Assembly (NCBI GenBank): GCA_038896535.1
Contig: JAWACY010000001.1
Location: 288,001 to 352,000 of the forward strand
Source of the DNA: Candidatus Anstonellales archaeon
GTDB lineage: Archaea > Micrarchaeota > Micrarchaeia > Anstonellales > J096
DNA length: 64,000 nt
Reading direction: 5' to 3'
Part shown: piece by piece, positions 39,781-53,932 of the stretch
How positions within the stretch are numbered: position 1 is the stretch's first letter
Layout: each line of letters starts with the position of its first letter
The notes under the pieces: generated by a model
What the model saw: only the letters and a program-made list of their open reading frames with translations
Database searches by the model: none
Told to the model about the DNA's origin: nothing
Translations under genes and position numbers: made by a program

Positions 39781-39806
39781 TTAAAAATTTGAATGCACAT
39801 TTATTT

Positions 39807-40010
39807 ATGCCTTTTTCAATAGGATTGACATTTACTTTTATAGGGGAATTTATGCTTGCAGTTGCTATATATTTAGTGCACGGAAAATTGCTACAAGAGA
39901 AAAGGCTGGATAAAAAGGTTTTTATGGAACTGTATAAAGAAGAAATAATAACTATTATAGCAATACTATTTTTATTATCCGGCTATATAATGCAGATATT
40001 TGACATATGA
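39807..40010 (+). CDS. Small two-TM membrane protein
   Basis: MPFSIGLTF...GEFMLAVA...VH...E...D; the 3' part of the tracked ORF 39552-40010. Confidence 0.6.
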   Translation: MPFSIGLTFTFIGEFMLAVAIYLVHGKLLQEKRLDKKVFMELYKEEIITIIAILFLLSGYIMQIFDI

Positions 40011-40083
40011 ATAGAGAATATAACTCAATGACAGCTGGCCATTAAAAAAGAGGAATATGCCTTGCTATTAGATAAGTAATTTT

Positions 40084-42552
40084 TTAGCAACCCATATCAA
40101 TAAGAGTTTGTTTATCTACTTGCATTCTTCTTGCAGTATTACATAAATTTGTTTTCCAATCACCAGAATAACAATCTTTGCATTCTTTATAAAATGCTGC
40201 ATATAATTTACCAGCTTCTATAGCATCTTTATAATTTGGTAAGTTCAATGCATTTAAAAAAGAAGCAAAATCAGATTGCATGCATGCACTGTTAGATAAT
40301 TTATAAGTGCTGCTGCTAGTGCTTGTACTTCCAGAACTGCCAGTGTTTATTGTTGTTGAACCAACTGAGCTTCTTGAGCCAGTTGAGCCAGTTGAGCTTG
40401 TTGAACTTGTTGAACCAGTTGAGCTTGATAATGTACAGCAAAGATTTCTTGTAGTTATTGACATTTTATCGCAGTTTCCACCAGATTTTAATATATCATC
40501 AAAAATATCAGCAAGTTGAATACTATTTATATTTACTATGCCCATTGCAGTGAGTAAAGCAGTCAATTGCCTTTTTTCTGATTCTGTTGTAGCAAAGCTC
40601 ATTGCTGAAGCTTTTTGATCTGCTTTATTATATGCTTGTTCAAATTTCATTAATAAAATGCATATGCCATCATTTATATCGAATGGGTTATATTCACTGC
40701 CCATGCATTTTTTCACATTATCTGGAAAGCTTGCGTAATCTGATGGTTTATAATCAAAGCTAAAAATACCCAAGCCATCTATTTTGCAAGCATTCCCCGC
40801 ATTACTATTTGTTGAATCGCAATTTGTTCCATATTTTATTGTAATGCTTCCTTGACAGCCAGCTTTTTTATATGCATCATTTAATTGATTTATTAAATTA
40901 TTATCAACATTTATGCCCTTTGAATTATTATAGCTTATGAAGCATGCATCGCCTTTGCTTTTATAATATGCTATTGCTCTTGCTACAACTCCATCAATTT
41001 CATTTGCATCAGCAGCAACATAAACCGCATCAGTAGCTTTGCAAGCATTGCTGTTTATGTTAGAAGAAAGCCCCTTAATAATGGGTGTCGGCTCAGAGAA
41101 ATCAATGCAAAAACTACATTTGTATATAGTTGGCGATTTTGAGCTTATATTTATAATTTCTGGCAAAATTTCTGGTTTAACAACGCTTTTTACTGAATAA
41201 TCCTGTATAGGGAATACAAAAGAGCATAAATCTGCATTATCAGCATTATACCTCAATGCCGGCAATACATTGCCATTTTTATAATCATTCCCTCCAGTAA
41301 TGTTGCTCCCTCCAGTATAGTATTTACTACAAAGGTCAAACCAGACATTAAATCTATATTTTGCATCTTCTATATTTCCTGTTGTTTTATTATAGAGAGT
41401 TAAAGCACAATTATCGCAATCAAAAATGGAGGTTGATTCAAAAAATGGCTGTGGTGCAAATCCCAAAAGGCCTTCTCTAATCAAAGCTGGAAGTATTGTA
41501 AATAACTGCTCGTAAATGGCAACATAATCATTATCACCATAAACACATCTATCTGTTTTTGGCAGATAAACATAATATATGAAAGATGATTTATTGAATT
41601 CTTTATTGATAAATGATATTAATGGCAATACTTCCTGTATCATTATTGCATCTCCACCACAGAATCCATTATCATCTTTTGTTCTACTAAATCTTGAGTC
41701 AATGCCAAAAGCAAAGCCATCTATAGAATTAAGAACTTGTTGATTGCTTGCATAGTTCGATTTATTTAAATAAAATCTTCTGTTTTCATATATCTCATCA
41801 AGAGATATTGATAAGAAAACGCTGCAATTAGGGCAAGCATTTTTTATATCAAGAACTTGTTTCATTACTTTATTGAATGTTGCTTGCTCTTTTTTAGGAT
41901 TTATTTCTGTAGCTACAAAAACTGGACCAAGGCCATTAATTGACTTTGCTATATCAAAAGCATTATCATTTGCAGGAGGGCTTCCATAATAATTTGTATC
42001 TAAGCCATCTTTATTATAGAATGCAAAAAAAGGTATCACATTTGCAGAAAGCATGCAGCCAATATTCTGTTTCGTGCCCAAAGGTCTTGCATAGCCATTA
42101 TTATCCCCAGTTATAAATCTTACTGAATATGTATAGCTATAATTGCAGTAAGCATTTGCTTCATTAAAATCTATTATTTTTGGGCCTTGCGCAAGCCCAA
42201 AAGGCCTTGCTCTTGTTTTTGTTCTGTTTAGTTCTTCCAAAAATTTTTTTACATCACTAAGATTTGAGGCATTCATTGTGAGAAAAGAACAATTTCCATT
42301 TACAAGAGATGTATCAGTAAAAAAGAAAAACCTCCTTGCAGTTTTATTGGTACAAGCGAATAAATAACATAAATTATCAGATGTGGGTTGAGCAATAGAA
42401 ACATTTAAATTATCATAGATTGTTTGTGCTAAATAATTTTCTCCAAATAGCCTTGCTTCTCCTTCTATTGTTGTACAACCGAATAAAAATAATAATAGAA
42501 TAATTACCGAATATTGCAATTTATTCATAACATTCATAATGATTTTACCCAT
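40084..42552 (-). CDS. Large exported Cys-rich protein with glycoside-hydrolase-like N-terminal half and degenerate SLT/lysozyme-like domain
   Basis: LFLFGC N-terminus; AADANEID..VARAIAYYKS...GLGIF...NPFDINDGI pattern; Ser/Thr/Gly tract. Confidence 0.6.
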   Translation of the reverse strand: MGKIIMNVMNKLQYSVIILLLFLFGCTTIEGEARLFGENYLAQTIYDNLNVSIAQPTSDNLCYLFACTNKTARRFFFFTDTSLVNGNCSFLTMNASNLSDVKKFLEELNRTKTRARPFGLAQGPKIIDFNEANAYCNYSYTYSVRFITGDNNGYARPLGTKQNIGCMLSANVIPFFAFYNKDGLDTNYYGSPPANDNAFDIAKSINGLGPVFVATEINPKKEQATFNKVMKQVLDIKNACPNCSVFLSISLDEIYENRRFYLNKSNYASNQQVLNSIDGFAFGIDSRFSRTKDDNGFCGGDAIMIQEVLPLISFINKEFNKSSFIYYVYLPKTDRCVYGDNDYVAIYEQLFTILPALIREGLLGFAPQPFFESTSIFDCDNCALTLYNKTTGNIEDAKYRFNVWFDLCSKYYTGGSNITGGNDYKNGNVLPALRYNADNADLCSFVFPIQDYSVKSVVKPEILPEIINISSKSPTIYKCSFCIDFSEPTPIIKGLSSNINSNACKATDAVYVAADANEIDGVVARAIAYYKSKGDACFISYNNSKGINVDNNLINQLNDAYKKAGCQGSITIKYGTNCDSTNSNAGNACKIDGLGIFSFDYKPSDYASFPDNVKKCMGSEYNPFDINDGICILLMKFEQAYNKADQKASAMSFATTESEKRQLTALLTAMGIVNINSIQLADIFDDILKSGGNCDKMSITTRNLCCTLSSSTGSTSSTSSTGSTGSRSSVGSTTINTGSSGSTSTSSSTYKLSNSACMQSDFASFLNALNLPNYKDAIEAGKLYAAFYKECKDCYSGDWKTNLCNTARRMQVDKQTLIDMGC

Positions 42553-42736
42553 AATGATATTTAAAAGTTAAAAATAAAAAACCAACTTAAATAAACATAA
42601 ATTAAATAAACACGGTCAGAAGGATTTAAAAGTTATTGAAAACATTTAAAAAAGTTATTGTAAAAGATAATGATAAGAACATTTAAAAACACTTTCTATT
42701 TATTATATAAATAAAGAGAAAAATAGAGGTAGGAGC

Positions 42737-43456
42737 ATGGGCAGGAGAAAAATAAAATTTAATGCTGTCGAGGATAATGTTATTAAAAAATTAAATGAAC
42801 GCCAAACAGCATTAAAGCAGAATAACAATCAATTAACATTTGCTAAGCTTGCTGAGCAGTTATTGAAGATTCAAGGGCAAGCAAAGCAGGCTTATAAAAA
42901 CCACGGCAGAGCAGAATTGTCAAAATTTGGTCTTTTGACATTGCAAGAAGCATATGATATGCTAAGGCAAAATGGAATAAATATAACATTTAGAGCATTC
43001 TCAGGCAGGATAGAGAGAAAAACTATACCAACAATAATAATAGGAAAAAGAAGATACTTATCAAAGGATGTTGTTGCACACATGATAGATCTGAATAACA
43101 AATTTTACAAAATAAGAGAAGCTTATGAGTTATATAGTTCAGTCAAACCAATCAATTTCAGAGCGTTTTTGGGCAGAATAGAAAAAGGAGCAATCCCTTC
43201 AGTAAAAATAGGGCATACAAAATACATTCCAAAAGAGGTTATAGAAACATTTTTGCATGTTGGAAAGAATTATTATACAGTAAAAGAGGTTGTTGATGAA
43301 TTGAGAAAGTTAGGGGTAAATATTAAAAGAGCGACAATTGAAAGAAGGCTTGACAGGGGCTCAATACCATTCCATAAAATAGGAGGAAAAAGATACATAC
43401 ACAAAGATGTTGCTAATGAATTAATAAATTATGAATTATCAAAACAGAAGAAATAA
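42737..43456 (+). CDS. DNA-binding protein with three tandem excisionase/MerR-like (HTH_17) domains
   Basis: Three repeats of (T/K)..EA/EV...(I/L).(R/K)G.IP..(K/I)IG..(R/K)Y(I/L).K(D/E)V; GAGGTAGGAG SD. Confidence 0.8.
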   Translation: MGRRKIKFNAVEDNVIKKLNERQTALKQNNNQLTFAKLAEQLLKIQGQAKQAYKNHGRAELSKFGLLTLQEAYDMLRQNGINITFRAFSGRIERKTIPTIIIGKRRYLSKDVVAHMIDLNNKFYKIREAYELYSSVKPINFRAFLGRIEKGAIPSVKIGHTKYIPKEVIETFLHVGKNYYTVKEVVDELRKLGVNIKRATIERRLDRGSIPFHKIGGKRYIHKDVANELINYELSKQKK

Positions 43457-43532
43457 GTTTATGTGTTATAAAATTACTTCTTGGCTTCTTTTCTTGGGCT
43501 GAAATTACTAATGGCAATTAATATATTTATGT

Positions 43533-43790
43533 TTAATATTCAAAATCTGGTTCTATTTTCATCCAAGTGCCATTTATAAATGCCCATAATGTCTTAGTAG
43601 TTGAGTCATAAACAAGGTTTTGTTTGTTTGCTATTTCTATGCCTCTGTCTATCTCTATGAATGGATATCTATAAGCCCATGAAAATTTCTCTCTAAAGAT
43701 GTTTGGCTCTATTAAGGCTAATCTTTTTGTTTCTTCTTTTCTCCTCTCGCAGTATGCAATAACTTCCTCAATCTCATTTTTTGGAGGCAT
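43533..43790 (-). CDS. Small hypothetical protein
   Basis: 85-aa ORF with plausible globular composition. Confidence 0.65.
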   Translation of the reverse strand: MPPKNEIEEVIAYCERRKEETKRLALIEPNIFREKFSWAYRYPFIEIDRGIEIANKQNLVYDSTTKTLWAFINGTWMKIEPDFEY

Positions 43791-43837
43791 AATAATATAA
43801 TAGAAAGCTTTTTATAAATAAATGATTAAATAAGATT

Positions 43838-44674
43838 ATGGTAACTCAAAAAACAGCATTTTATGCATCAATTGGTTTAGGCATATTTGGTGTTTTTGCA
43901 GCGCTTGCAGCTGGAGGAGGAATAATAACAATCATAGGCCTGTTTTTTGCAGCTCTTGGGATAATAGGAAGTGTAGCATTCTATAAATATGGTTACATGT
44001 TAGTTCCATGGCTTACGCAACAAACAAAAACTGTATTCATTACTTCTGATGGATATGAAATACCTCCAAGCCAGGATGTAATAATAAAAAAAGGTGAGAA
44101 TGGAGTTTATTATGCAACAGCATTCCTCGGATTAAGACTTTATCAATCTGCTGTTGAAATGACAGAAGAGCAGTTAAGAGCTTATAACACGCTTTTTGAA
44201 CGGGCTATGTCTGGATTTAAAAAAGTTGTGAAAATTGGCTATATAATGCATGCTGTTGATATAGCAGAAAAGAAAAGAGATTTAGAAAGTAAAAAGGCAG
44301 AGGCACAATTAAGATTGCAAAGAGAAAGAGAAAAGACTGAGCCAGATCCATTAAGGATTGAAAGGTTTGAAAGAGAAGTATCATATTGGAGTGCACAAAT
44401 AGATAAATTAACAAGGGGGCTAAGGCCAATGAAAGTTGTTTTGTATGCAATGACAACAGATGCTGGAATAACAAGAGATGAAGCAATAGCAAGAGTAAAT
44501 AATAATGTGTCTGAGCTAAGAACATTATTGAGCAATTCATTGAATTGCGAAGTTGTAAGGCTTGTTGCTGATGAGATGATGACTGCTTTTGAGTGGGAGA
44601 GATTTTTGCCTTTAACACCAGAAGATATAGAAGCAAGGGTTGAACTTGAAAAATCAGGGGGTATGCAAATATGA
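43838..44674 (+). CDS. Two-TM plus coiled-coil protein coupled to the ATPase (VirB3/PrgI plus VirB4 N-terminal-like)
   Basis: Two N-terminal TMs, alpha/beta region with helical hairpin; ATGA overlap with the ATPase. Confidence 0.6.
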   Translation: MVTQKTAFYASIGLGIFGVFAALAAGGGIITIIGLFFAALGIIGSVAFYKYGYMLVPWLTQQTKTVFITSDGYEIPPSQDVIIKKGENGVYYATAFLGLRLYQSAVEMTEEQLRAYNTLFERAMSGFKKVVKIGYIMHAVDIAEKKRDLESKKAEAQLRLQREREKTEPDPLRIERFEREVSYWSAQIDKLTRGLRPMKVVLYAMTTDAGITRDEAIARVNNNVSELRTLLSNSLNCEVVRLVADEMMTAFEWERFLPLTPEDIEARVELEKSGGMQI

Positions 44675-46254
44675 CAGCAGCAAAGGTTCCTGCAGGTAAG
44701 CTTACAATAACTGAAACAACAAATGTTGAAATTGGAAGGAGAAATATTTTGCATCATCCACCAGAGCCACCGCCAGAGTTTATCATGGCAGATATAACAA
44801 ACGGCATATATATAGGCAGAACAGCTGAATTAAATGCTCCATTCTTTTGGGCTCCAAAGTTTACAACAAACCCGCATATAGCTATTGTAGGTATTTCTGG
44901 TAGCGGAAAATCATACTTCATAAAGACTTTCCTTGTTAGAGCAAGCTTTGTCTGGAATGCTAATGCAATAATAGTTGATTGGGCTGGAGAATATAAAGAT
45001 TGGGTCTTAGAGACCGGAGGGAAGTTAATAGCATTGGGTAAGGGCAATAATCTTAACTTGCTTGATCTTGGAGGGATGAGGCCATATGACAGGATAAAGC
45101 AAGTCATGAGAACTCTGGAGTTGCTTACAGATATTGCCCAGTATCCTGAACAAAAAAGATTGACAGAACAAGCAATAGAAGAAGCATATGTAAGAGCAAA
45201 ATTTAAACTTGATTCAAGAGAGCAAAAAGATGAGCTTGGAAATGTACTTGAGCCACCAACATTAAAAGATGTTGTCAAAATACTTGAGGAATTAAGGCAA
45301 ACAGGAGCTTATGAATACCCATCTGAGCTTGAAAATTCTATTCATAGGCTGAAGCAGTTTACAAGACAAGGGGAAGATTATTTCGCGCAAAAGAGCACAA
45401 TAAATTTAGATGAAATTGTTTCCTCTGGCTTGGTTGACCTTGATTTAACTGGCTTGCCAGATGAAACAATGAGGGCTTTGGGAGCATTAACAGTTTTACA
45501 ATTTATTAAAGAAAGAATGCGTCTTGAAGGCGCGCAAGAAGTTAAAGGCATAAAGCTTATAACAGTTGTTGATGAGGCATGGAAAATTGCAGGAGAAGAA
45601 AATTCTGACATAGTCATGATAGTAAGAGAGGGAAGAAAATATAACTTTTCTTTGATTGTTGCGAGCCAAAACCCAACCGATATTAGTAAGAGCATATTTA
45701 GCAATGTTGGCACGACATTTATATTAAAAACTAAATTCGAAACATTTCTCGATTATTTGCAAGGCAGCTTGAGATTTAGCAATTACATGAGAGAAAAAAT
45801 CATGCAGTTTGGCGTTGGGCAAGCCTGCGTTAACATGGCTTTTCATGTTCCATTGCAGTTTTCACAAACATTCATAATAAATAAAATCGAAGGCGAAGAG
45901 CCTATTAAAGATTTCTTCTTAACATTCGAAGGAATAGAAGGTGTTACTATGGGATTTGCAATATCAATAAAGAAAAATGAATTTAGAGATACGCTAAGAA
46001 AAAAGCTTGGGTTAAATGAAGAAGAAGTACAAGCAATAACAGCAAAATTTGAAAAATTATCTAGGAGAATGAATGTTGTTGATTTTGTTATCGAGCTAGA
46101 GCTAAAAAATGCACAGAGGAAAAGAATAGTAGATTTGCTCAAAGAATGGGGTGTTGACGATGCAACAATTATTAATATATTCACAAAAGTTGATTTTAAG
46201 AAAAGCGGTCAAAAAGGCAGCTTGCCAGTAAGGCTCTTAGTTAAAAAAGAATAA
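44671..46254 (+). CDS. VirB4/HerA/FtsK-superfamily ATPase
   Basis: NPHIAIVGISGSGKS (Walker A), IVDWAGEY, VVDEAW (Walker B), REGRKY, ASQNPTD. Confidence 0.88.
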   Translation: MTAAKVPAGKLTITETTNVEIGRRNILHHPPEPPPEFIMADITNGIYIGRTAELNAPFFWAPKFTTNPHIAIVGISGSGKSYFIKTFLVRASFVWNANAIIVDWAGEYKDWVLETGGKLIALGKGNNLNLLDLGGMRPYDRIKQVMRTLELLTDIAQYPEQKRLTEQAIEEAYVRAKFKLDSREQKDELGNVLEPPTLKDVVKILEELRQTGAYEYPSELENSIHRLKQFTRQGEDYFAQKSTINLDEIVSSGLVDLDLTGLPDETMRALGALTVLQFIKERMRLEGAQEVKGIKLITVVDEAWKIAGEENSDIVMIVREGRKYNFSLIVASQNPTDISKSIFSNVGTTFILKTKFETFLDYLQGSLRFSNYMREKIMQFGVGQACVNMAFHVPLQFSQTFIINKIEGEEPIKDFFLTFEGIEGVTMGFAISIKKNEFRDTLRKKLGLNEEEVQAITAKFEKLSRRMNVVDFVIELELKNAQRKRIVDLLKEWGVDDATIINIFTKVDFKKSGQKGSLPVRLLVKKE

Positions 46255-46269
46255 AGGAAAGGTGGTAAA

Positions 46270-46776
46270 ATGGATTTAGATATAATAACTGGAAAAGAAG
46301 TTAATAAAGGATATAGAGTTAAAGAAGACATTGTAATAAGAACTATTGCATGGATTAAAAAGAAAGCAGGCTTATATCAGGGAAATAATTTATATGTTGC
46401 AGAAGAATCGCTTGAAGAATACAAAAAAAGAAGGAGCAGGTTTGAGAGATACGCAATTTTTGGCACTATTTTTGTTTTTGTAGTGCTTGTTTTTTCTATC
46501 TTACTCCCAATTACTTCAGGGGATTATCAAAAGATTATTTCAAATATTGTTGCAGTCTTAGGCCTTACTTTTGTTACTTTCTTTCTTGTATTATTCTCTT
46601 ACATGCCAGCAATAGAAGATAAAATAACAATAATAAGGGAAGAAAAGAAAAAGGAGGAGAAAGAAAATAAAGAGGCTGATGAATTAAAAAAAGAGGCCAA
46701 AGAAAGGGAAATTAAAGAGAAAGAGGAGAAAAAAGATATAAAAGAGAAGAAAACATATAAGAGGAGAAAGAAATAG
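46270..46776 (+). CDS. Two-TM membrane protein with charged tail
   Basis: GGTGGT SD; two TMs; Lys/Glu-rich C-terminus. Confidence 0.75.
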   Translation: MDLDIITGKEVNKGYRVKEDIVIRTIAWIKKKAGLYQGNNLYVAEESLEEYKKRRSRFERYAIFGTIFVFVVLVFSILLPITSGDYQKIISNIVAVLGLTFVTFFLVLFSYMPAIEDKITIIREEKKKEEKENKEADELKKEAKEREIKEKEEKKDIKEKKTYKRRKK

Positions 46777-46785
46777 GTTGATTGA

Positions 46786-47490
46786 ATGGAGCCAGAAATA
46801 ATAACATTAACATTAAAAGTAATTAAGCAAGCAAATATTAACGATGTTTATAATGTAATATCTTCATTATCAGGATTTAAGATATATAAAACACAGAAAG
46901 CTGTTTATGTAGCAATTGTTGAGAAAGAAGATGTTGAAAAAAGGCCTACGAAATTTATTATTGTCGAATTTTTGCAGGATTCAATAAATATGCATTTTAC
47001 CGTTTCAGAAGATGAAAGTTCTTCTATAAGAAAGCTCGAAGTAATTTCGAAAGCCCTGCCAATAATAGAACTTGTTTTAGATAGCTATTCATTGTCAATC
47101 AAGCCCTTATTATCAATCGTTGATTCTGCACTTACTGAAATGTTGCATAAATTTACGAGAGAGATGAAAGATGTATTAATAGAGAACGATAGACTTAGGG
47201 ATAAAATAGTAGAGCAAAGCAGCAAAATAAAAAGGCAGGAAGAGCAAATTAAAGAACTGACTTCAAAGCTTTATGAAATAAACTCAGAAAATGCTGAATT
47301 AAGGCTTAAGCTTGGCAAATATGAAAAGCCGAGCCAAGAGGCATTAGAATCAATGTTGATGGATTGGATTAAAGAGCACGGCGGCACGATAGATATAGCT
47401 GAATTCTCCAGAATAAACAATGTTCCTATTTCAAGGATTGAAGATACTCTTAACGGGCTTGTTAATAAAGGTTTCATAAAGCCGCTGTGA
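46786..47490 (+). CDS. Coiled-coil protein with C-terminal winged helix
   Basis: Heptad region then WIKEHGGTIDIAEFS..NNVP..RIED.LN.LVNKGFI. Confidence 0.72.
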   Translation: MEPEIITLTLKVIKQANINDVYNVISSLSGFKIYKTQKAVYVAIVEKEDVEKRPTKFIIVEFLQDSINMHFTVSEDESSSIRKLEVISKALPIIELVLDSYSLSIKPLLSIVDSALTEMLHKFTREMKDVLIENDRLRDKIVEQSSKIKRQEEQIKELTSKLYEINSENAELRLKLGKYEKPSQEALESMLMDWIKEHGGTIDIAEFSRINNVPISRIEDTLNGLVNKGFIKPL

Positions 47491-47494
47491 TATC

Positions 47495-49999
47495 ATGGCA
47501 AAAAGATTTGCTATAAATAAAGATTATAAGTATATAAAGAATTTTAAAATTGCGCAAAGGTCTTTTATTGATAATTTATTGGATCAATTTAAAACAAAAA
47601 AACCAAAGCAAGAGAAAGTAAAAGAAATAAAAGAAAAAGTGCAAGTAAAAGGTATTGACATAATGCTAATGAAGGCACTTCCACTATTGATATTTTTGGG
47701 TTTAATAGGTTATTTTTATATAACATTCCAAAACATCACTGCATCATTGGCAGAACAACCAGTAATTGGAGAAGAAAAAATAAAATTTCCAGAGATAAGG
47801 AAAGCACTTTTTATTGATTATGGGGCCAGAGATAATAGGATATATGCTGCTCTTATAAACCTATACCTTCCTGAAGAAAAGATATACACTATTCATCTAT
47901 CTAGAATGATAAGACCATTTACAGGCAATATTTTCATTTACTCAGATGATATATACCCAAAAACAGAAGATACATTAAAATTCATAGAAACTCTTGAAAA
48001 AGAGCTAAATAACAAAGGTTTTGTTGTCCAGAGAATTTATTCAAAAGAGCAGTTAAATTACATTGACAGCAACAGCATTTTTGTTTTGCCTTCTGATAAG
48101 TTACCTGCAAATATAGAGAATTATTTTGATAAGATGAGTGAGAAGGGCATAACAATATTAATAATAAGCTCTACTCCAACAAATGAGCAGATAGAACTTG
48201 GTATAAGGGATATAACATCTTACTGGGCATCAAAAGATATTAGATTTATTCCATCAACATTTAAACCATCTGGCATGAAAATGTATCAAGCTTTTTATTA
48301 TGTTGACAAAGCATCTTTGATAAATGGAGGGGCTTCATATATACTGACTAAAGGTGGGGATGAATTTATTTTTATTCCAGGCTCTGTTGGGGATACAATA
48401 ACAAACCATTGGAGAAACAGCCAAGAAGCTGCTCTGGATACAGCAAATATAATAATTGAGTTCGTAAAAGGGTTAAGGGAATATAAAAAGGAAGAAGGAG
48501 AAAGATTAGTCCCGGATGAAATATTATATAATTTACCTAATGGAAGCCATTATGTATTAATTGAAAACAATGATAAAAATAAAAGTGCCCTTAATGTTTT
48601 ATTAACAGCAGATTTAGATGGCAATACATTTTTTTACAAGCCTTTGACTGTTGTTAAAGATTATAATGGCTACATTTATCCTAATGAGCCAATGCCAATA
48701 TTGCCATTTTATGTCAGGAATGTGCCAATTGTATTTGAATACCTCCCAGATCCTGAGCAGGCATTATTTTCATCAATAGGATTAAAATTAGTAAATGCAA
48801 ACAATCAAGTTGTTGATAATGTGACATTAGCACAAGGAAGCCAAGTTCCACTTAATAGCATATCAACAGTTCAATATATAAATAAGGATTTAAATGATAC
48901 TAGGTATTTAATAGAACTTGTTGATTTAAGAAAAAACACTGTTTATTCAAGATCTGTATTAGAACTTGGAACTCTTGAAATAAGGCCAGAGCCTAAATTT
49001 GATGAAGGCAAGATAACATTTTATTTTGAAATAGCAGGAAGGCCGACAAAAGTTGGTAATGTTGTTTTATCTTTGGTTGGTGGTGATTTTACTGCTGGAA
49101 CTAGAAATAGCGATAGGATAACAATAGATATGTCAGGTTATTATGGAGGAGCAATACCAGCAGGCAATTATACTTTTAAGTTTTCAATAGAGGGGCTTGG
49201 GCAAAGAGAAGTAAATATATATAATCCCCCAAAAATAGGCATATCAAGGCTTTTTAGCATAGAAAGAATGGCATTAATTTTAATTGCAGGCATTATATAT
49301 GCTGTTGGCATGATGGTAAAAAGAGCAGAAGAATTGCCATACAATATAGATATCCCAGATTTTGCCCCAGTTGAATACACAACATTGGAGTTAAGCAAGG
49401 AAGAAATAAAGAAGGCATTTGAAGTAATAAGCGATTATTATAAATGGAAATACATACCGTTAAGGCTTGAAGAGATAAAGAGGGGCATATCAATGATGCT
49501 AGGCAGAAAAGACCTTGTCATTAATGATTTTAATCTTGAAATTGTTTTGGGTAATCTTGAAAGAGACGGAATAGTAAAAGAGGAATCTGGATTTTATGTA
49601 TTAACAGAATGGCTGAAATCTGGTTTTACAATACAGCAATTGATAGCATTTAGGTTGATAAGGGATGCTGCAATAGCACATGCTTTGCCATTCAAAAATA
49701 TAACAAGGGCCCTTCCACATACCAAGGTTACATTTCCATGGCAGGAGATGTGGATTTATTTATACAGCTCATTAGATAAAGAAAGGATAACTGATGCAAT
49801 ATTAAATAATGTCGGAAAAACAGAAGCATTGCAAATAATACTTGTTCCAGATGAAAGGGAAGCATATACATTTCACACACTTTTAAGCAGTGGGCGGAAG
49901 AAAGATTCTCTTATTAAAGCTTATATAGATAATGGCATTATATTTTTATTCACGACACAAGAATTAATAGATAAGATAGAACAACTTAGTTTGTCATAA
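47495..49999 (+). CDS. Large membrane protein (two TMs, big extracellular region, cytoplasmic wHTH-like tail)
   Basis: 834 aa; TMs near residues 60-80 and about 590-610; last gene of the ATPase operon. Confidence 0.75.
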   Translation: MAKRFAINKDYKYIKNFKIAQRSFIDNLLDQFKTKKPKQEKVKEIKEKVQVKGIDIMLMKALPLLIFLGLIGYFYITFQNITASLAEQPVIGEEKIKFPEIRKALFIDYGARDNRIYAALINLYLPEEKIYTIHLSRMIRPFTGNIFIYSDDIYPKTEDTLKFIETLEKELNNKGFVVQRIYSKEQLNYIDSNSIFVLPSDKLPANIENYFDKMSEKGITILIISSTPTNEQIELGIRDITSYWASKDIRFIPSTFKPSGMKMYQAFYYVDKASLINGGASYILTKGGDEFIFIPGSVGDTITNHWRNSQEAALDTANIIIEFVKGLREYKKEEGERLVPDEILYNLPNGSHYVLIENNDKNKSALNVLLTADLDGNTFFYKPLTVVKDYNGYIYPNEPMPILPFYVRNVPIVFEYLPDPEQALFSSIGLKLVNANNQVVDNVTLAQGSQVPLNSISTVQYINKDLNDTRYLIELVDLRKNTVYSRSVLELGTLEIRPEPKFDEGKITFYFEIAGRPTKVGNVVLSLVGGDFTAGTRNSDRITIDMSGYYGGAIPAGNYTFKFSIEGLGQREVNIYNPPKIGISRLFSIERMALILIAGIIYAVGMMVKRAEELPYNIDIPDFAPVEYTTLELSKEEIKKAFEVISDYYKWKYIPLRLEEIKRGISMMLGRKDLVINDFNLEIVLGNLERDGIVKEESGFYVLTEWLKSGFTIQQLIAFRLIRDAAIAHALPFKNITRALPHTKVTFPWQEMWIYLYSSLDKERITDAILNNVGKTEALQIILVPDEREAYTFHTLLSSGRKKDSLIKAYIDNGIIFLFTTQELIDKIEQLSLS

Positions 50000-50419
50000 A
50001 TTCATATAACCAACAAAAACAAACTTCTTTGGAAGCTTCTTGTGAAGGGGAAAAAGAAAAGCTGGGCTTAGTTAATAGAAAAGAATAAAAAATAAAAGAA
50101 GAGTTAAGATTAAGAAGAGCAGAAATTATAATAAAACAAAACAAAGACAAAATATCAAGTGAAAACAAACAAAAGAAATACAAGCTAAATTAAGCGCAAC
50201 AAAAGATGAAGAAGAGAAAAATACATTAAGGATAATAGTAATAATAGAATGTAAATCCGAAGAAGAAATTCCAAAAGCCTTAAAAGAGTTAATGAAAAAC
50301 TTCAATGAAAATCTTATAGAAGATAAAAAAAGACAATCTTGATGAAGAGAAATTAAAAGCCATAATAAAAGTCATTGAAAATTATTATCAAAATATATTG
50401 AGCTTCTATATTCCTTGTG
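50000..50419 (+). pseudogene. Possible decayed coding remnant
   Basis: About 420 nt of purine-rich Glu/Lys-codon-like sequence broken by stops in an otherwise gene-dense region. Confidence 0.35.
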
Positions 50420-50468
50420 ATGTAATTGTGATGTTGTGATTTAATGTTGTGATTTAATTGTGACGTAA
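50415..50468. repeat. Five tandem TTGTGA-containing repeats
   Basis: ttgtgatgtaa-ttgtgatg-ttgtgatttaatg-ttgtgatttaa-ttgtgacgtaa. Confidence 0.8.
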
Positions 50469-50549
50469 TCCGAAATTATAAATTATATAAATTATAAAAA
50501 TAAAAACAGCATATAAATAATTAAAAACCATTATTTGGGAATACATACA

Positions 50550-51194
50550 ATGCTGGCTAACAACTTATTGTCAATTGATCTGGCAGCAAAAGAAAATAAT
50601 ATAACTGGCATTGCATATTTTGAAAAATGTGGAGATAAATTTCTTGCTAGGACATTATTTGCTAAAACATTAAGCATTTATACAGATGAAGAAATAAAAA
50701 GCATTGCAAAGCATTTCAAATATGTTTTTATTGATGCTCCATTGTCATTACCAAAAGGAAGAAAAAGCATAGATAAAAAGGAAAATATACATTTTAGGAT
50801 ATGTGATATGAAATTAAGGGCTCTTGGAATAAAATTTTTTCCAATAACGCTTTCTGGCATGAGGGCATTAACAAAGAGAGGGTTAAAAATAAAGCATGAA
50901 CTAAATAAGCTTGGCTGCATTTGTTATGAAATATATCCTGGAGCAAGTTATGATATGCTTGGACTAAAGAGAAAAATGATAAAAGAACAAATTGATTTTT
51001 ATAACAAAATAGGCATAAAACACAGTATTTCAAATCAGCATGAAAGCGATGCATTAATGGGCCTAATAACCGCATTGCTTTTTATAAAGGGCAAAGCAAA
51101 AGTGCTTGATGGTGAGGATGGGGCAATAATATTGCCAAGTAAAAAATTCAATGCAGAAGAAATTAAAGCAGTAATTTATAACACAAATGAATAG
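50550..51194 (+). CDS. DUF429-like RNase H-fold nuclease
   Basis: SIDLAA...TG, FIDAPLSLP, R.CD, EIYPGA, HESDA. Confidence 0.82.
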   Translation: MLANNLLSIDLAAKENNITGIAYFEKCGDKFLARTLFAKTLSIYTDEEIKSIAKHFKYVFIDAPLSLPKGRKSIDKKENIHFRICDMKLRALGIKFFPITLSGMRALTKRGLKIKHELNKLGCICYEIYPGASYDMLGLKRKMIKEQIDFYNKIGIKHSISNQHESDALMGLITALLFIKGKAKVLDGEDGAIILPSKKFNAEEIKAVIYNTNE

Positions 51195-51250
51195 AAGCCG
51201 GATAGTAAAAAGATAGTAAAAAATAAAAATACTCCATATTAATAGATTTT

Positions 51251-52225
51251 ATGGCAAATATTAAATCAAACAAGATTTTATTTATATCCTTCGTTATATT
51301 TATTTTTTTATTCGGCTGTGTCGAGCAGGTAAAAAAACAAAGAACTATTGAGATCCCTGAATCATATAACATAAATATAACAAGCGAGTATGAAGAAATA
51401 AATAAAGTAAAGCTCCCAATATTGCCAACTGAAGAAAATGGGAGTATAAATTTAGAGCAAATAGCAAATTATACAAAAGATGAAAATGCTACATTAAACA
51501 TTGTATTTTTTAACATTGGGCCTGATCAAAGGCTTGACCTTATTTCAAAAGGAGATTTTGATGTTGCCATTGTTTCTATTAATGCAGATAAGATAGATGA
51601 AGCAAGTGCCTTGCTTAAGTCAAAAGCTGATGATATTGAAATACTTATCCTGCCGTATGCAAAAACCGCTGTTGATAGTTTAAAAATAAAAAATAAGATA
51701 GATGTTGCAAAAATAATAGTGCCAGATTATGAATTGCTTAATATAACATCGCCAAATGTTGAAAAAATGAAATCTGGAGATAATATAAAAGAAAATGGAA
51801 TAACAATCACTTTTATTACCCCATTTAAAGGCGCATTTTCTGGCTATGAAAATAACGCGCTTTCATTTTATCTTAATGATAGGAACTTTTCAATATTTTT
51901 TGGCAATGATATTGTTGAAGGAGCAATAGGAAAAATTGTATCAAGCAATTTAGCATTGAAAACAGATGTTGTTGTTATGCCATCCTATGGAAAAGGAGAA
52001 GCATCAGGCCAATATATGGGCCTTTTCATTGATAGGGCAAATCCAAAAAGTGCTGTATTTGAAGGCATGGGCATAGATTTAAATAGAATTGAACAAAATG
52101 ATTCTAGAGTTGGAATAATAAACAAGCTTTTGTTAAAGAACATAAATCTTTATTTTGTTGGCAATAATAAGAACGTTTTGATATCATATAATGGGAACAT
52201 GTATAATGTAAATGAGAATAATTAG
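51251..52225 (+). CDS. Exported ComEC/Rec2-type metallo-beta-lactamase-fold protein lacking metal ligands
   Basis: LFGC N-terminus; FFNIG, ENNALSF, SIFFGND, LKTDVV, P..AV scaffold motifs; no HxHxDH. Confidence 0.62.
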   Translation: MANIKSNKILFISFVIFIFLFGCVEQVKKQRTIEIPESYNINITSEYEEINKVKLPILPTEENGSINLEQIANYTKDENATLNIVFFNIGPDQRLDLISKGDFDVAIVSINADKIDEASALLKSKADDIEILILPYAKTAVDSLKIKNKIDVAKIIVPDYELLNITSPNVEKMKSGDNIKENGITITFITPFKGAFSGYENNALSFYLNDRNFSIFFGNDIVEGAIGKIVSSNLALKTDVVVMPSYGKGEASGQYMGLFIDRANPKSAVFEGMGIDLNRIEQNDSRVGIINKLLLKNINLYFVGNNKNVLISYNGNMYNVNENN

Positions 52226-52234
52226 GGTAATAGT

Positions 52235-52972
52235 ATGAAAAATATAAGTAATAATATAAATAACAGCAGAAGTGATAAGATGAAGAACAAGGGGAAATAT
52301 ATGGAAAGCGTTGTCATTTCTCTTGGCGGTAGTGTAATAAACCCTGGAAAACCTGATACAAAAAAAATTTTATCACTTGCAAATATATTTAATTCATTTA
52401 AAGGTAAAATGGCTATAACAACTGGTGGGGGGAGCTATGCCAGGATATATGCAGATTGCATAAGAGAGATAAGCAAAAATGAATTTTTTGCTGATGAAAT
52501 AGGCATATTAGAAACAAGGCAAAATGCCATGCTTGTAATACCAGCATTAAAAAATGCCTGCCCTTATGTAGTGCAAGATTTTAGAGAAGCAATATCGCTA
52601 TTGAATACTTATAATATTGTTGTGATGGGCGGCTTTATGCCAGGCATAACAACAGATGCAGTTGCTGTTATGCTTGCAGAAGTTATAAAAGCAAAAAGGC
52701 TTGTAAATATAAGTAATATAAATGGCATTTATGACAGGCCACCAAATGAAAAAGGGGCAAAGAAGCTTGATAAGTTATCATTGCAAGAATTGCTAGAACT
52801 TGCTTATGAATATGATAAAAGAAAAGCAGGCACACACTTTATTTTTGATGTGCTTGCTTGCAAACTTGCTTTAAGGGCTGGTATAGAAATACATTTTGTC
52901 TCATCAGAAGAAGAGGAAGTTAGAAATGCATTGAATGGCAGAAAACATAATGGCAGCATAGCCTATGCTTAG
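52235..52972 (+). CDS. pyrH: Uridylate kinase
   Basis: VISLGGSV, GGGSYARIY, GI..TR.NA, PGITTDAVA; start possibly 52301. Confidence 0.93.
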   Translation: MKNISNNINNSRSDKMKNKGKYMESVVISLGGSVINPGKPDTKKILSLANIFNSFKGKMAITTGGGSYARIYADCIREISKNEFFADEIGILETRQNAMLVIPALKNACPYVVQDFREAISLLNTYNIVVMGGFMPGITTDAVAVMLAEVIKAKRLVNISNINGIYDRPPNEKGAKKLDKLSLQELLELAYEYDKRKAGTHFIFDVLACKLALRAGIEIHFVSSEEEEVRNALNGRKHNGSIAYA

Positions 52973-53056: not shown

Positions 53057-53932
53057 TTAAACGCATTGTCTTTTTACTACATCACATACATAACCTTTTT
53101 GACAATCATTATCTGTATTGCATCTTCCTGGTTTTGCTGTGCATAGTTTTGTTTGCTGATTGCAGTATTCCCATTCTTTACAGTTTGCATCTGTATTACA
53201 ATAGCCCCTTTTTGGTACACATACATGTTTTGTTGAATCGCAATACTCCCATGTATTGCACTGACTTGATGAATCGCAATAGCCAGGCAATGGAGCACAT
53301 TTTTTATTGTTTGTATTACAATACTGCCAATCCTCGCAATTACTGTCATCATTACAAAATCCTGGTTTTGGTACGCAAGTATTAGTTTTATTATTGCAAA
53401 ATTCATATGCATAGCAATCCTTGTCATTAAAGCATCTGCCAGGAATTGGGAAACATTTATTGTTGCTGCAATATTGCCAGGAAGCATTGCAATCTAAATC
53501 ACTATTGCAAAATCCGGGTTTAACTTTACATACATGAGATGTCTGATCGCATACTTCATTTTGTTTACACTCAGCATCATTGTTACAGAATCCCTGAGCT
53601 GTAATGCATAGGTGGTTTGATAAATTACATTCTTGCCAATTTTCACAATCAGAACTTGTTTGGCAGAATCCCTTTTTAGGAATACAGTAATTTCCTTTAT
53701 TGCATTCTTGCCAATTTTCACAATCAGAATTTGAAAAACACCTCCCAGGCAATGGCTGACATATGCCTTTATCTTTATTACATTGTTGCCATGCTTTACA
53801 ATCAGCATCATTTGAGCACTTAATTATATTTTGCCCTGAGCTAGAAGTGCAACCATAAAAGAATAATAAGAATGAGAATAGTATTATTGTTAAAAAAGCA
53901 TGGTATTTATTGAAAGCATTATATATATCCAT
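53057..53932 (-). CDS. Exported protein with ten tandem 4-Cys repeats
   Basis: FFYGC N-terminus, then repeats of G(F/R/Y)C....(D)C..W..C.....C.P.P, 25-26 aa each. Confidence 0.85.
   Translation of the reverse strand: MDIYNAFNKYHAFLTIILFSFLLFFYGCTSSSGQNIIKCSNDADCKAWQQCNKDKGICQPLPGRCFSNSDCENWQECNKGNYCIPKKGFCQTSSDCENWQECNLSNHLCITAQGFCNNDAECKQNEVCDQTSHVCKVKPGFCNSDLDCNASWQYCSNNKCFPIPGRCFNDKDCYAYEFCNNKTNTCVPKPGFCNDDSNCEDWQYCNTNNKKCAPLPGYCDSSSQCNTWEYCDSTKHVCVPKRGYCNTDANCKEWEYCNQQTKLCTAKPGRCNTDNDCQKGYVCDVVKRQCV

Follow-up and report, generated by a model that had tools for sequence, protein, structure and literature searches.

Five tightly coupled genes on the + strand of a Candidatus Anstonellales genome (Micrarchaeota; assembly GCA_038896535.1, contig JAWACY010000001.1, positions 288,001 to 352,000; this whole 64,000-nucleotide stretch is hereafter the window, in whose coordinates positions are given) form one conserved chromosomal unit (43838–49999). 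We tentatively regard its products as best explained overall by a split membrane motor complex of the VirB4/CedB type, which would translocate a polymer, or a subunit, at the cell envelope. The operon combines an ATPase of the FtsK-HerA superfamily with a separately encoded membrane protein whose soluble part is predicted to have the fold of half of a VirB4 N-terminal domain (N-domain), and with three proteins of 168, 234 and 834 amino acids (aa) that belong to no known family. A first-pass annotation of the window had described five + strand genes with gaps of −4 to 15 nt, encoding a partner with two transmembrane (TM) helices, a VirB4/HerA-type ATPase, a 2-TM protein, a coiled-coil/winged helix-turn-helix (HTH) protein and an 834-aa membrane protein. 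The open reading frames (ORFs) and their junctions (−4, +15, +9 and +4 nt) are exactly so, and TM-like windows and matches in Pfam, NCBIfam and PDB agree with the descriptions of the products:

43838–44674, + strand: 278-aa protein, two membrane helices followed by a soluble domain resembling part of the VirB4 N-domain
44671–46254, + strand: 527-aa ATPase, FtsK-HerA superfamily, CedB/VirB4 kind; its start overlaps the preceding stop by 4 nt
46270–46776, + strand: 168-aa protein, N-terminal domain, two membrane helices and a charged tail
46786–47490, + strand: 234-aa protein, cytoplasmic, coiled coil and C-terminal winged helix
47495–49999, + strand: 834-aa membrane protein, two TM helices, large ectodomain and conserved C-terminal domain (C-domain)

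A conserved chromosomal unit in Micrarchaeota

Gene order was compared by blastp in 20 loci, each a 20 kb stretch with an ATPase orthologue, from genomes as close as the same genus and as distant as other orders of the phylum. The ATPase, 234-aa and 834-aa genes were found in the same order in all 20 loci; the search missed the 278-aa gene in two of them and the 168-aa gene in two. A count based on hidden Markov models across 60 loci (the first 20 plus 40 more) found the 168-aa gene adjacent in every locus, the 234-aa gene in 58 (misses: L052 and L060), the 278-aa gene in 57 (misses: one contig end and two loci with an unrelated upstream gene) and the 834-aa gene in 56 (misses: two loci cut short, L052 and L060). 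The genomes of L052 and L060 carry the 834-aa gene elsewhere. Recurrence of the gene order in 56–60 of 60 related loci is far above chance, and the five genes form one conserved unit.

An orthologue of the ATPase was present in all 41 genomes of the order (G000 included; 57%–80% identity) and in 177 of 201 genomes sampled across the phylum (E ≤ 1e-20; 134 of the 152 high-quality ones). Two unpublished genomes, both positive (G216 and G061), are part of the latter count, which falls to 175/199 when they are left out; no other result depends on them. This sample consisted of Micrarchaeota, and the 80 loci kept from the search with the ATPase alignment were saturated by Micrarchaeota. Absences followed family: the ATPase was found in 0/6 genomes of family f16, 0/4 of f20, 0/1 each of f22–f25 and f28, and only 2/10 of f17. 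Three high-quality genomes of such families had no ATPase relative at E ≤ 1e-3 and no 834-aa homologue; therefore, the module appears to be present or absent as a whole.

Across the same 40 relatives, the ATPase (57%–80% identity) matches LonB (54%–72%) and exceeds aRF1 (31%–58%), which indicates that the motor is under housekeeping-grade constraint, i.e., strong purifying selection. Moreover, identity of the ATPase declines with taxonomic distance, as expected of vertical inheritance rather than mobility. The operon is hence chromosomal, vertically inherited and not mobile, which bears out the earlier suggestion of a chromosomal unit rather than a mobile element.

The ATPase, its split N-domain and its partners

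The 527-aa protein passes the Pfam cut-offs of DUF87 (1e-13, 52.3 bits; cut-off 23.2), AAA_10 (1.4e-11, 44.5 bits; cut-off 27.5) and the TraG P-loop family (7.9e-11, 41.7 bits; cut-off 25.8), and on its sequence is assigned to the P-loop ATPases of the FtsK-HerA superfamily (DUF87/AAA_10). A Walker A motif (GSGKS, residue 77) and a DEAWK motif (residue 301) are both among the invariant columns of an alignment of 57 orthologues, in which mean column identity is 65%. At the N-terminus, a peptide of the RPPEPP type is likewise invariant. The best NCBIfam model is CedB (NF041017, 81.2 bits vs a cut-off of 700), which is also the best-scoring curated model for the paralogues of the operon ATPases. 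Other scores include those of the mycoplasma VirB4 model (VirB4_plasma, NF045975; 78.1 vs 590), CedD (NF053655; 63.6 vs 600), TraC-F (55.4 vs 567) and further VirB4/TraC models at 43–62 bits (TIGR00929, 43.2 vs 643.1; NF045971, 62.3 vs 325). HerA models scored 31–41 bits (cut-offs 800–970), and the ATPase domain also matched the CD1110 model. No curated VirB4, CedB, CedD or HerA cut-off was reached. The NCBIfam alignments start at about residue 45–65 of the protein and fall on the ATPase halves of the models (250–538 of CedB, 427–737 of TraC). Because they cover only these halves, the 527-aa protein is read as lacking an N-domain; it consists of the ATPase domain and a C-terminal tail of ~120 aa.

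An extra ORF of ~100 aa lies directly 3′ of the ATPase gene in 19 of the 60 related loci (e.g., L021:11018–11314, + strand), and extra ORFs at G031:C5:40026–40277 and G037:C10:27391–27666 share 39%–40% identity with tail residues 422–514. On this evidence, the tail resembles a small, mobile helical domain of which a copy can stand as a gene of its own. An intein with a LAGLIDADG-type endonuclease interrupts one orthologue of the ATPase, from another Micrarchaeote (L073:5585–8728, − strand), right after the Walker A GKS. Intein-bearing versions make up 10 of 12 longer ATPase relatives (P0271–P0280), some apparently with more than one intein and up to 1654 aa long.

The N-domain missing from the ATPase has a candidate counterpart in the preceding gene. 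The 278-aa protein comprises an N-terminal hairpin with two TM-like windows, followed by a soluble domain. It had no sequence match in Pfam or NCBIfam, a Pfam scan of 57 family members gave no consistent family, and a PDB profile search found nothing below E 0.06. Its AlphaFold2 model is confident (pLDDT 88.4), and in a Foldseek search of PDB the first eight rows were all TrwK, the VirB4 of plasmid R388, with the fold of residues 69–269 matching TrwK 219–384. The TrwK N-domain spans residues 15–400 (PMC9259494), and the matched residues thus make up its distal half, on the side of the ATPase domain. The evidence from the model is good but not overwhelming that the soluble domain has this fold; the first half of the VirB4 N-domain (~15–218) was not located. 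A VirB4-type N-domain therefore seems to be present in the system on a polypeptide of its own, whose ORF shares 4 nt with that of the ATPase, and the 278-aa protein would be the "front half" of a split VirB4/CedB-type motor. No fusion of the two was found among the 12 longer ATPase relatives, nor were longer 278-aa relatives found, which is weak evidence. Mean column identity is 42%–43% for the 278-aa and 234-aa proteins. In 23 of the 60 loci, two 278-like genes stand side by side, the additional one immediately upstream.

A maximum-likelihood tree of 34 rows included ten other superfamily members from relatives, seven HerA-type and three full-length VirB4-type. The operon ATPases form one group (support 99/99) and join their paralogues (95/90) outside the HerA-type and VirB4-type groups. 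The first-pass annotation had named grouping with repair HerA as one outcome that would refute its proposal, and the ATPase did not group with the HerA-type proteins of its lineage; with its long branches, the three-group tree places the operon ATPases in neither group and does not order their nearness to VirB4 and to HerA. The seven HerA-type genes of relatives score 150–190 bits on HerA models, except one at 67 bits. In the source genome, the HerA model finds no gene besides the operon ATPase, and NurA, Mre11 and Rad50 were not seen among the ORFs scanned in the window. Identification of the ATPase as a repair HerA was considered and rejected on three grounds: its HerA model scores of 31–41 bits, its separation (95/90) from the seven HerA-type rows and the lack of repair partners among these ORFs. 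Elsewhere in Micrarchaeota, giant open frames of 2942–4596 aa have weak matches to the ATPase core (G111:C1:781269–794939; G029:C6:9088–9525; G036:C15:88674–89015) and are reminiscent of the giant VirB4-bearing proteins of nanohaloarchaea.

The paralogues belong to a second module, whose ATPase (32%–49% identity) occurs in about half of the genomes of the order. Across eight paralogous loci (L074–L081), a 278-like gene flanks the ATPase in six and a 234-like gene in six, and 168- or 834-like genes flank it in none. Since the paralogous module keeps these three genes without the other two, the triad of 278-aa protein, ATPase and 234-aa protein, not the whole operon, is the duplicated motor unit. 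Three of the paralogous loci have a 5–6-TM protein (~300–360 aa) and an 81–86-aa 2-TM protein just upstream, and one small 2-TM protein of the module, in another genome, touches the T4SS_pilin family (PF18895, E 0.0016). In these sequence features, the paralogous module resembles a Ced-type set complete with channel and pilin. The source genome and its genus are without it and have single copies of all three triad genes, so the operon would work without the paralogous module.

The three remaining proteins are orphans. The 168-aa protein has a small cytoplasmic N-terminal domain and TM-like windows at 57–75 and 87–105; the second helix is followed by a conserved Y-x-P and by a charged tail rich in K and E. 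In most of 45 aligned orthologues, the N-terminal domain is Cys-rich and Zn-ribbon-like (CxxC...C..C); the copy in the window has no Cys and has lost this motif, and other parts of the domain are conserved. Its Pfam and NCBIfam matches were all below cut-off and on the membrane part, with none to T4SS_pilin. The 234-aa protein consists of an N-terminal alpha/beta-type domain of no known family, a coiled coil at ~115–190 and a C-terminal winged helix. The latter resembles TrmB (Pfam, E 7e-4), CdvB (NCBIfam, E 6.7e-5) and the CdvB winged helix in PDB (2xvc, E 0.002), and 43 of 59 family members touch EAP30/Vps36 (PF04157) at E ≤ 0.05 (best 5.2e-6).

The signature partner of the module is the 834-aa protein. 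It has a basic cytoplasmic N-terminus (pI 10.0), TM-like windows at 49–67 and 583–601 separated by an ectodomain of ~500 aa, and a cytoplasmic C-domain of ~230 aa. Conservation per block peaks at 601–760 (0.46–0.57, vs 0.23–0.43 in the ectodomain), and mean column identity is 27% (24% for the 168-aa protein). The density of N-glycosylation sequons in the ectodomain is 4.5 times that in the C-domain (2.05 vs 0.45 per 100 aa), with the ectodomain higher in 49 of 57 orthologues. Because sequons concentrate in the middle part, a topology with the N-terminus inside, the ectodomain outside and the C-domain inside fits the protein, and the ectodomain is probably glycosylated. No consistent Pfam match was found across 57 family members, a PDB profile search returned nothing below E 0.06, and the Atlas, whose model of the protein has a pLDDT of 0.54, offered no usable lead. 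Comparisons by hhalign with the 234-aa and ATPase families gave probabilities of 5% and 0.5%, respectively. The family is small, as its profile retrieved only 504 clusters (E ≤ 1e-3) among 1.84 billion representatives.

Genomic setting and flanking genes

The operon lies in a 0.75 Mb, 91%-complete genome of five contigs (overall GC ~31%), and the window is chromosomal. Archaeal housekeeping genes surround it: ribosomal proteins L13, S9, S2 and L18e at 36.2–38.4 kb, geranylgeranyl reductase at 38.5–39.8 kb and, elsewhere in the window, LonB, NMD3, aRF1 and a topoisomerase. GC is 0.28–0.36 at the operon region and 0.24–0.37 across the window, in agreement with the host-like composition noted at first pass. 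The stretch is present in six DNA sequencing runs from hot-spring metagenomes, with no RNA run listed. The features next to the operon are as follows:

40084–42552, − strand: 822-aa exported-type protein, hydrophobic N-terminus ending LFGC
42737–43456, + strand: triple HTH_17/excisionase-type protein, three repeats visible in the sequence
43811–43820, + strand: TATA-box-like TTTATAAATA, 18–27 nt before the first ATG, read from the sequence only
50535–51194, + strand: flanking gene, DUF429 match only at E 0.094 (12.9 bits vs a cut-off of 23)
51251–52225, + strand: exported-type protein, hydrophobic start ending LFGC

A TATA-like box was seen only ahead of the first operon gene, that of the 278-aa protein, which has no Shine-Dalgarno-like motif. 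Such motifs precede the ATPase gene (GGGGGT), the 168-aa gene (AGGTGG) and the 234-aa gene (GAGGAG). TTTATAAATA is likely the promoter of a leaderless or short-leader operon transcript, and together with the internal motifs it would represent the usual pattern of an archaeal operon with a leaderless first gene. Downstream, an A-rich spacer of 535 nt (50000–50534) holds several TATA-like runs before the next gene, with no + strand ORF of at least 25 aa and no Rfam match; Rfam had no match anywhere in 39800–52600. Further downstream, 53057–53932 (− strand) encodes a Cys-rich 291-aa protein with four DUF5885 stretches and a Dickkopf_N-like region, and internal 35-nt direct repeats in the gene mirror the protein repeats.

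Membership of the flanking genes in the system, entertained in the first-pass annotation, was not upheld. The synteny that it had proposed to examine across Micrarchaeota holds for the operon (56–60 of 60 loci) and not for the flanking genes, none of which lies next to the operon in any of 20 related loci. In relatives, various housekeeping genes border the operon (GT4 glycosyltransferase, topoisomerase VI B, adenylosuccinate lyase, TFE-alpha). The triple Xis-like protein is indeed of the HTH_17/excisionase type. Its gene is conserved and single-copy in 21/21 relatives (38%–51% identity), on other contigs or far from the operon, and in two genus-mates it adjoins a homologue of the 822-aa gene. 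The two therefore appear to be a conserved pair of their own that adjoins the operon here by chance.

The 822-aa protein, divergent from the operon, had been read as exported and SLT-like. Export is plausible given the hydrophobic N-terminus; no SLT or other family was found (best Pfam match DUF515, E 0.048), and nothing in PDB. It is Cys-rich, with a Ser/Thr/Gly linker near residue 700. The hydrophobic stretch ending LFGC that it shares with the 51251–52225 protein is lipobox-like. For the latter, Pfam, NCBIfam and PDB gave no support to the suggested ComEC/metallo-beta-lactamase fold, leaving only the hydrophobic start. A DUF429-like nuclease at 50535–51194 is likewise not sustained, with the match below cut-off and nothing in PDB.

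The earlier remark that no relaxase, coupling protein, integrase or att site is visible holds at the scale of the genome. Profile searches of the whole 91%-complete genome found no match to tyrosine integrase (PF00589), relaxase (PF03432) or coupling protein (PF02534), and none to TrbL/VirB6 (PF04610), a model that may not detect CedA-like proteins. A search for att-like repeats bracketing the region found only short, imperfect or intragenic matches, and there is no tRNA within 20 kb.

Known systems, candidate function and rivals

The Ced system of Sulfolobales (CedA, CedA1, CedA2, CedB, CedD, CedE) and the Ted system of Thermoproteales (TedA, TedB, TedC) are, like the operon, chromosomal, non-mobile and archaeal, with a membrane-tethered ATPase, a HerA-like core and a VirB4-like N-domain. 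CedB and CedD, both required for DNA import, are described as carrying VirB4-like N-domain parts on HerA-clade ATPase domains (PMC11868833), and the operon shows a similarly mixed signal, with a HerA-like ATPase core and a VirB4-like N-domain. The VirB4 N-domain is likewise divided in Ced, between CedB and CedD (PMC11868833), but the operon motor is split at a different place, with part of the N-domain on a protein without any ATPase. Unlike Ced/Ted, the operon has no VirB6-like CedA/TedA and no evident VirB2-like pilin, and its 168-, 234- and 834-aa proteins are without counterpart. It is also lineage-wide and highly conserved, is not known to respond to DNA damage, and scores far below the CedB and CedD cut-offs (81 vs 700 and 64 vs 600).

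The operon resembles VirB3 and VirB4 of R388 (TrwM and TrwK) in that the modelled soluble part of the 278-aa protein can be superposed on TrwK 219–384, and its two N-terminal helices may take the anchoring role that the two TM helices of VirB3 have for VirB4 (PMC9259494). Unlike VirB4 of a type IV secretion system (T4SS), the motor is split between N-domain and ATPase, no VirB2, B5, B6, B8, B11 or D4 was found, and the operon is not plasmid-borne; its best plasmid tblastn matches are only ~23% identical. In TrsD-type monoderm T4SSs (pGO1 class) and in Patescibacteria, a separate VirB4-N-like protein is encoded beside VirB4, as in the operon. Chromosomal T4SS genes, TrsD included, occur widely among Patescibacteria, and for one epibiont they are reported as essential (PMC12102498). 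Those genes are, as in our case, chromosomal and widely kept in an ultra-small host-dependent lineage. They differ in that VirB3/PrgI, VirB6 and VirB2-like genes are kept, in belonging to another domain of life and in having no sequence-level match to the operon. An Atlas search linked the 278-aa protein to Bacillota clusters with the TraC-like family PF26593 (score 0.80), which is a lead only, as Pfam scans of the 57 members gave nothing.

Giant "SPEARE" proteins of Nanohaloarchaeota combine an immunoglobulin (Ig)-rich ectodomain, a TM segment, a VirB4/TraG-like ATPase and a coiled coil in one chain (PMC10266531). The module set is the same and the host is again a DPANN symbiont, but SPEARE is a fused giant chain with ~75 Ig-like repeats, and the operon encodes five proteins with a 500-aa ectodomain of no assigned fold. 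Compared on these features, the operon appears to fit none of Ced/Ted, bacterial T4SSs, TrsD-type T4SSs and SPEARE. Makarova et al. 2015 described a MoxR-based "novel secretion system" (PMC5898192), which was also considered and is a different system. An ESCRT survey (PMC10936438) does not mention the Micrarchaeota lineage, HerA or VirB4, and no published description of the operon was found in the literature searched (subscription-only papers and supplements lay outside the search).

We consider it highly probable that the five proteins form one membrane complex. It would be powered by a catalytically intact VirB4/CedB-type hexameric ATPase split in two. The 527-aa protein would bring the ATPase, and the 278-aa protein would anchor it in the membrane and represent the distal N-domain half of VirB4. 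The 234-aa coiled-coil/winged-helix protein would be a fixed cytoplasmic partner of the motor, and the 168- and 834-aa proteins would add four membrane helices per protomer. The ectodomain of the 834-aa protein would reach the cell surface; its conserved cytoplasmic C-domain is the likely motor dock and, with the 234-aa protein, may sit on the ATPase ring. ATP hydrolysis would drive a polymer through, or a subunit out of, the membrane assembly. That the complex translocates a macromolecule seems reasonably probable. Its most likely cargo would be DNA from outside or from a host, as in the Ced system, which would suit nucleotide-poor symbionts. DNA as cargo and import as direction are only a tentative suggestion; in its favour, CedB is the nearest curated model, and symbionts of this kind must scavenge nucleotides, to judge from DPANN genomes in general. 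In a wider and still rather doubtful version, the operon would be the core of an undescribed phylum-wide envelope machine that takes DNA or other macromolecules from hosts, with a split VirB4-type motor and an 834-/168-aa scaffold replacing VirB6/VirB2; it would thus be an archaeal counterpart of the T4SS on which epibiotic growth of Patescibacteria depends.

Several observations weigh against the favoured reading. The operon itself lacks any recognisable channel of the VirB6 or CedA type, pilin, coupling protein, nuclease or further gene for handling DNA, and two is the highest number of TM-like windows in any of the five proteins. It is the paralogous module that has the more Ced-like set, so the operon in the window may do something else. 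Against PDB, the ATPase profile scores HerA chains at 48–54 bits, above the sole VirB4 chain found (40 bits), which leaves the ATPase core alone ambiguous between HerA and VirB4. In a wide fold search with the 278-aa protein, TrwK (Z 9.3) is barely separated from unrelated helical-hairpin rows (8.8), the strength of the match being in coverage rather than Z. The winged helix of the 234-aa protein bears a weak resemblance to the protein-binding CdvB/ESCRT-II kind, not to a known DNA binder. Lastly, the module was not found in 24 of the 201 sampled genomes, including whole families, and is thus not indispensable to every Micrarchaeote.

Two serious rivals keep the complex and change its task. 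The same assembly may export proteins or effectors into or onto a host, or hold a contact site, with the 834-aa ectodomain as adhesin or conduit, a reading to which we give a modest chance. Host contact would be in keeping with an ectodomain that is large, evolves fast, is rich in sequons and is joined to a conserved cytoplasmic domain, as well as with the protein-binding kind of winged helix and with the giant ORFs with weak ATPase matches in other Micrarchaeota. Precedents in ultra-small symbionts are given by the Patescibacteria T4SS (PMC12102498) and the nanohaloarchaeal giant proteins (PMC10266531). However, the operon has no linked candidate for an effector, a signal or a channel component, its neighbours vary and are housekeeping genes, and among curated models the ATPase comes closest to CedB, a DNA importer. 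Alternatively, the motor may extract a membrane subunit, the 168- or 834-aa protein, into a filament, sheath or S-layer-linked structure, as has been proposed for VirB4, which would lever pilins from the membrane in R388 (PMC9259494). In favour of this, the 168-aa protein combines small size and two TM helices with presence in 60/60 loci, and in the source genome the operon would work without the pilin-bearing paralogous module. Yet the cytoplasmic Zn-ribbon-like domain and long charged tail of the 168-aa protein are unlike VirB2/CedA1 pilins, it gave no T4SS_pilin match and no VirB6-like platform is present; we regard surface assembly as rather improbable.

Two further readings are unlikely. 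In the first of these, the ATPase would be an intracellular DNA motor with a HerA/FtsK-like role in segregation, division or repair, and the membrane partners would only anchor it. HerA chains are the best PDB matches of the ATPase profile, the HerA model finds only this gene in the source genome, the 234-aa protein is weakly like a CdvB-type winged helix and a ZapB-type coiled coil, and conservation is at housekeeping level. Nonetheless, the partner N-domain has the predicted fold of VirB4 and not of HerA, the separate HerA-type genes of relatives score 150–190 bits vs 31–41 and split from the module ATPases in the tree (95/90), NurA, Mre11 and Rad50 were not seen among the window ORFs scanned, and a 500-aa ectodomain has no place in such a role; we think it very improbable. 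The idea of a remnant of an integrated conjugative element, for which the VirB4 kind of ATPase and the upstream excisionase-family HTH protein might speak, is close to refuted. Inheritance is vertical across the phylum with identity tracking taxonomy, composition is host-like, searches of the genome found no integrase, relaxase or coupling protein, att-like flanking repeats and nearby tRNAs are lacking, and the HTH protein is a conserved single-copy gene located elsewhere in 21/21 relatives.

How host nucleotides, lipids and proteins reach DPANN archaea has yet to be settled, and to our knowledge no dedicated host-acquisition apparatus is known for Micrarchaeota. The operon is a strong candidate for an apparatus that moves large molecules across the Micrarchaeota envelope. 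It offers five concrete, testable targets that are kept in most of the phylum, conserved at the level of LonB, free of mobile-element features and built around a motor of the conjugation/DNA-import type. Alongside CedB/CedD and TrsD, the split motor proposed here would be a third, independent-looking case of a divided VirB4 N-domain. If the reading is true, it would also show that a motor of the VirB4 type can operate on an unrelated membrane scaffold in place of VirB6/VirB2.

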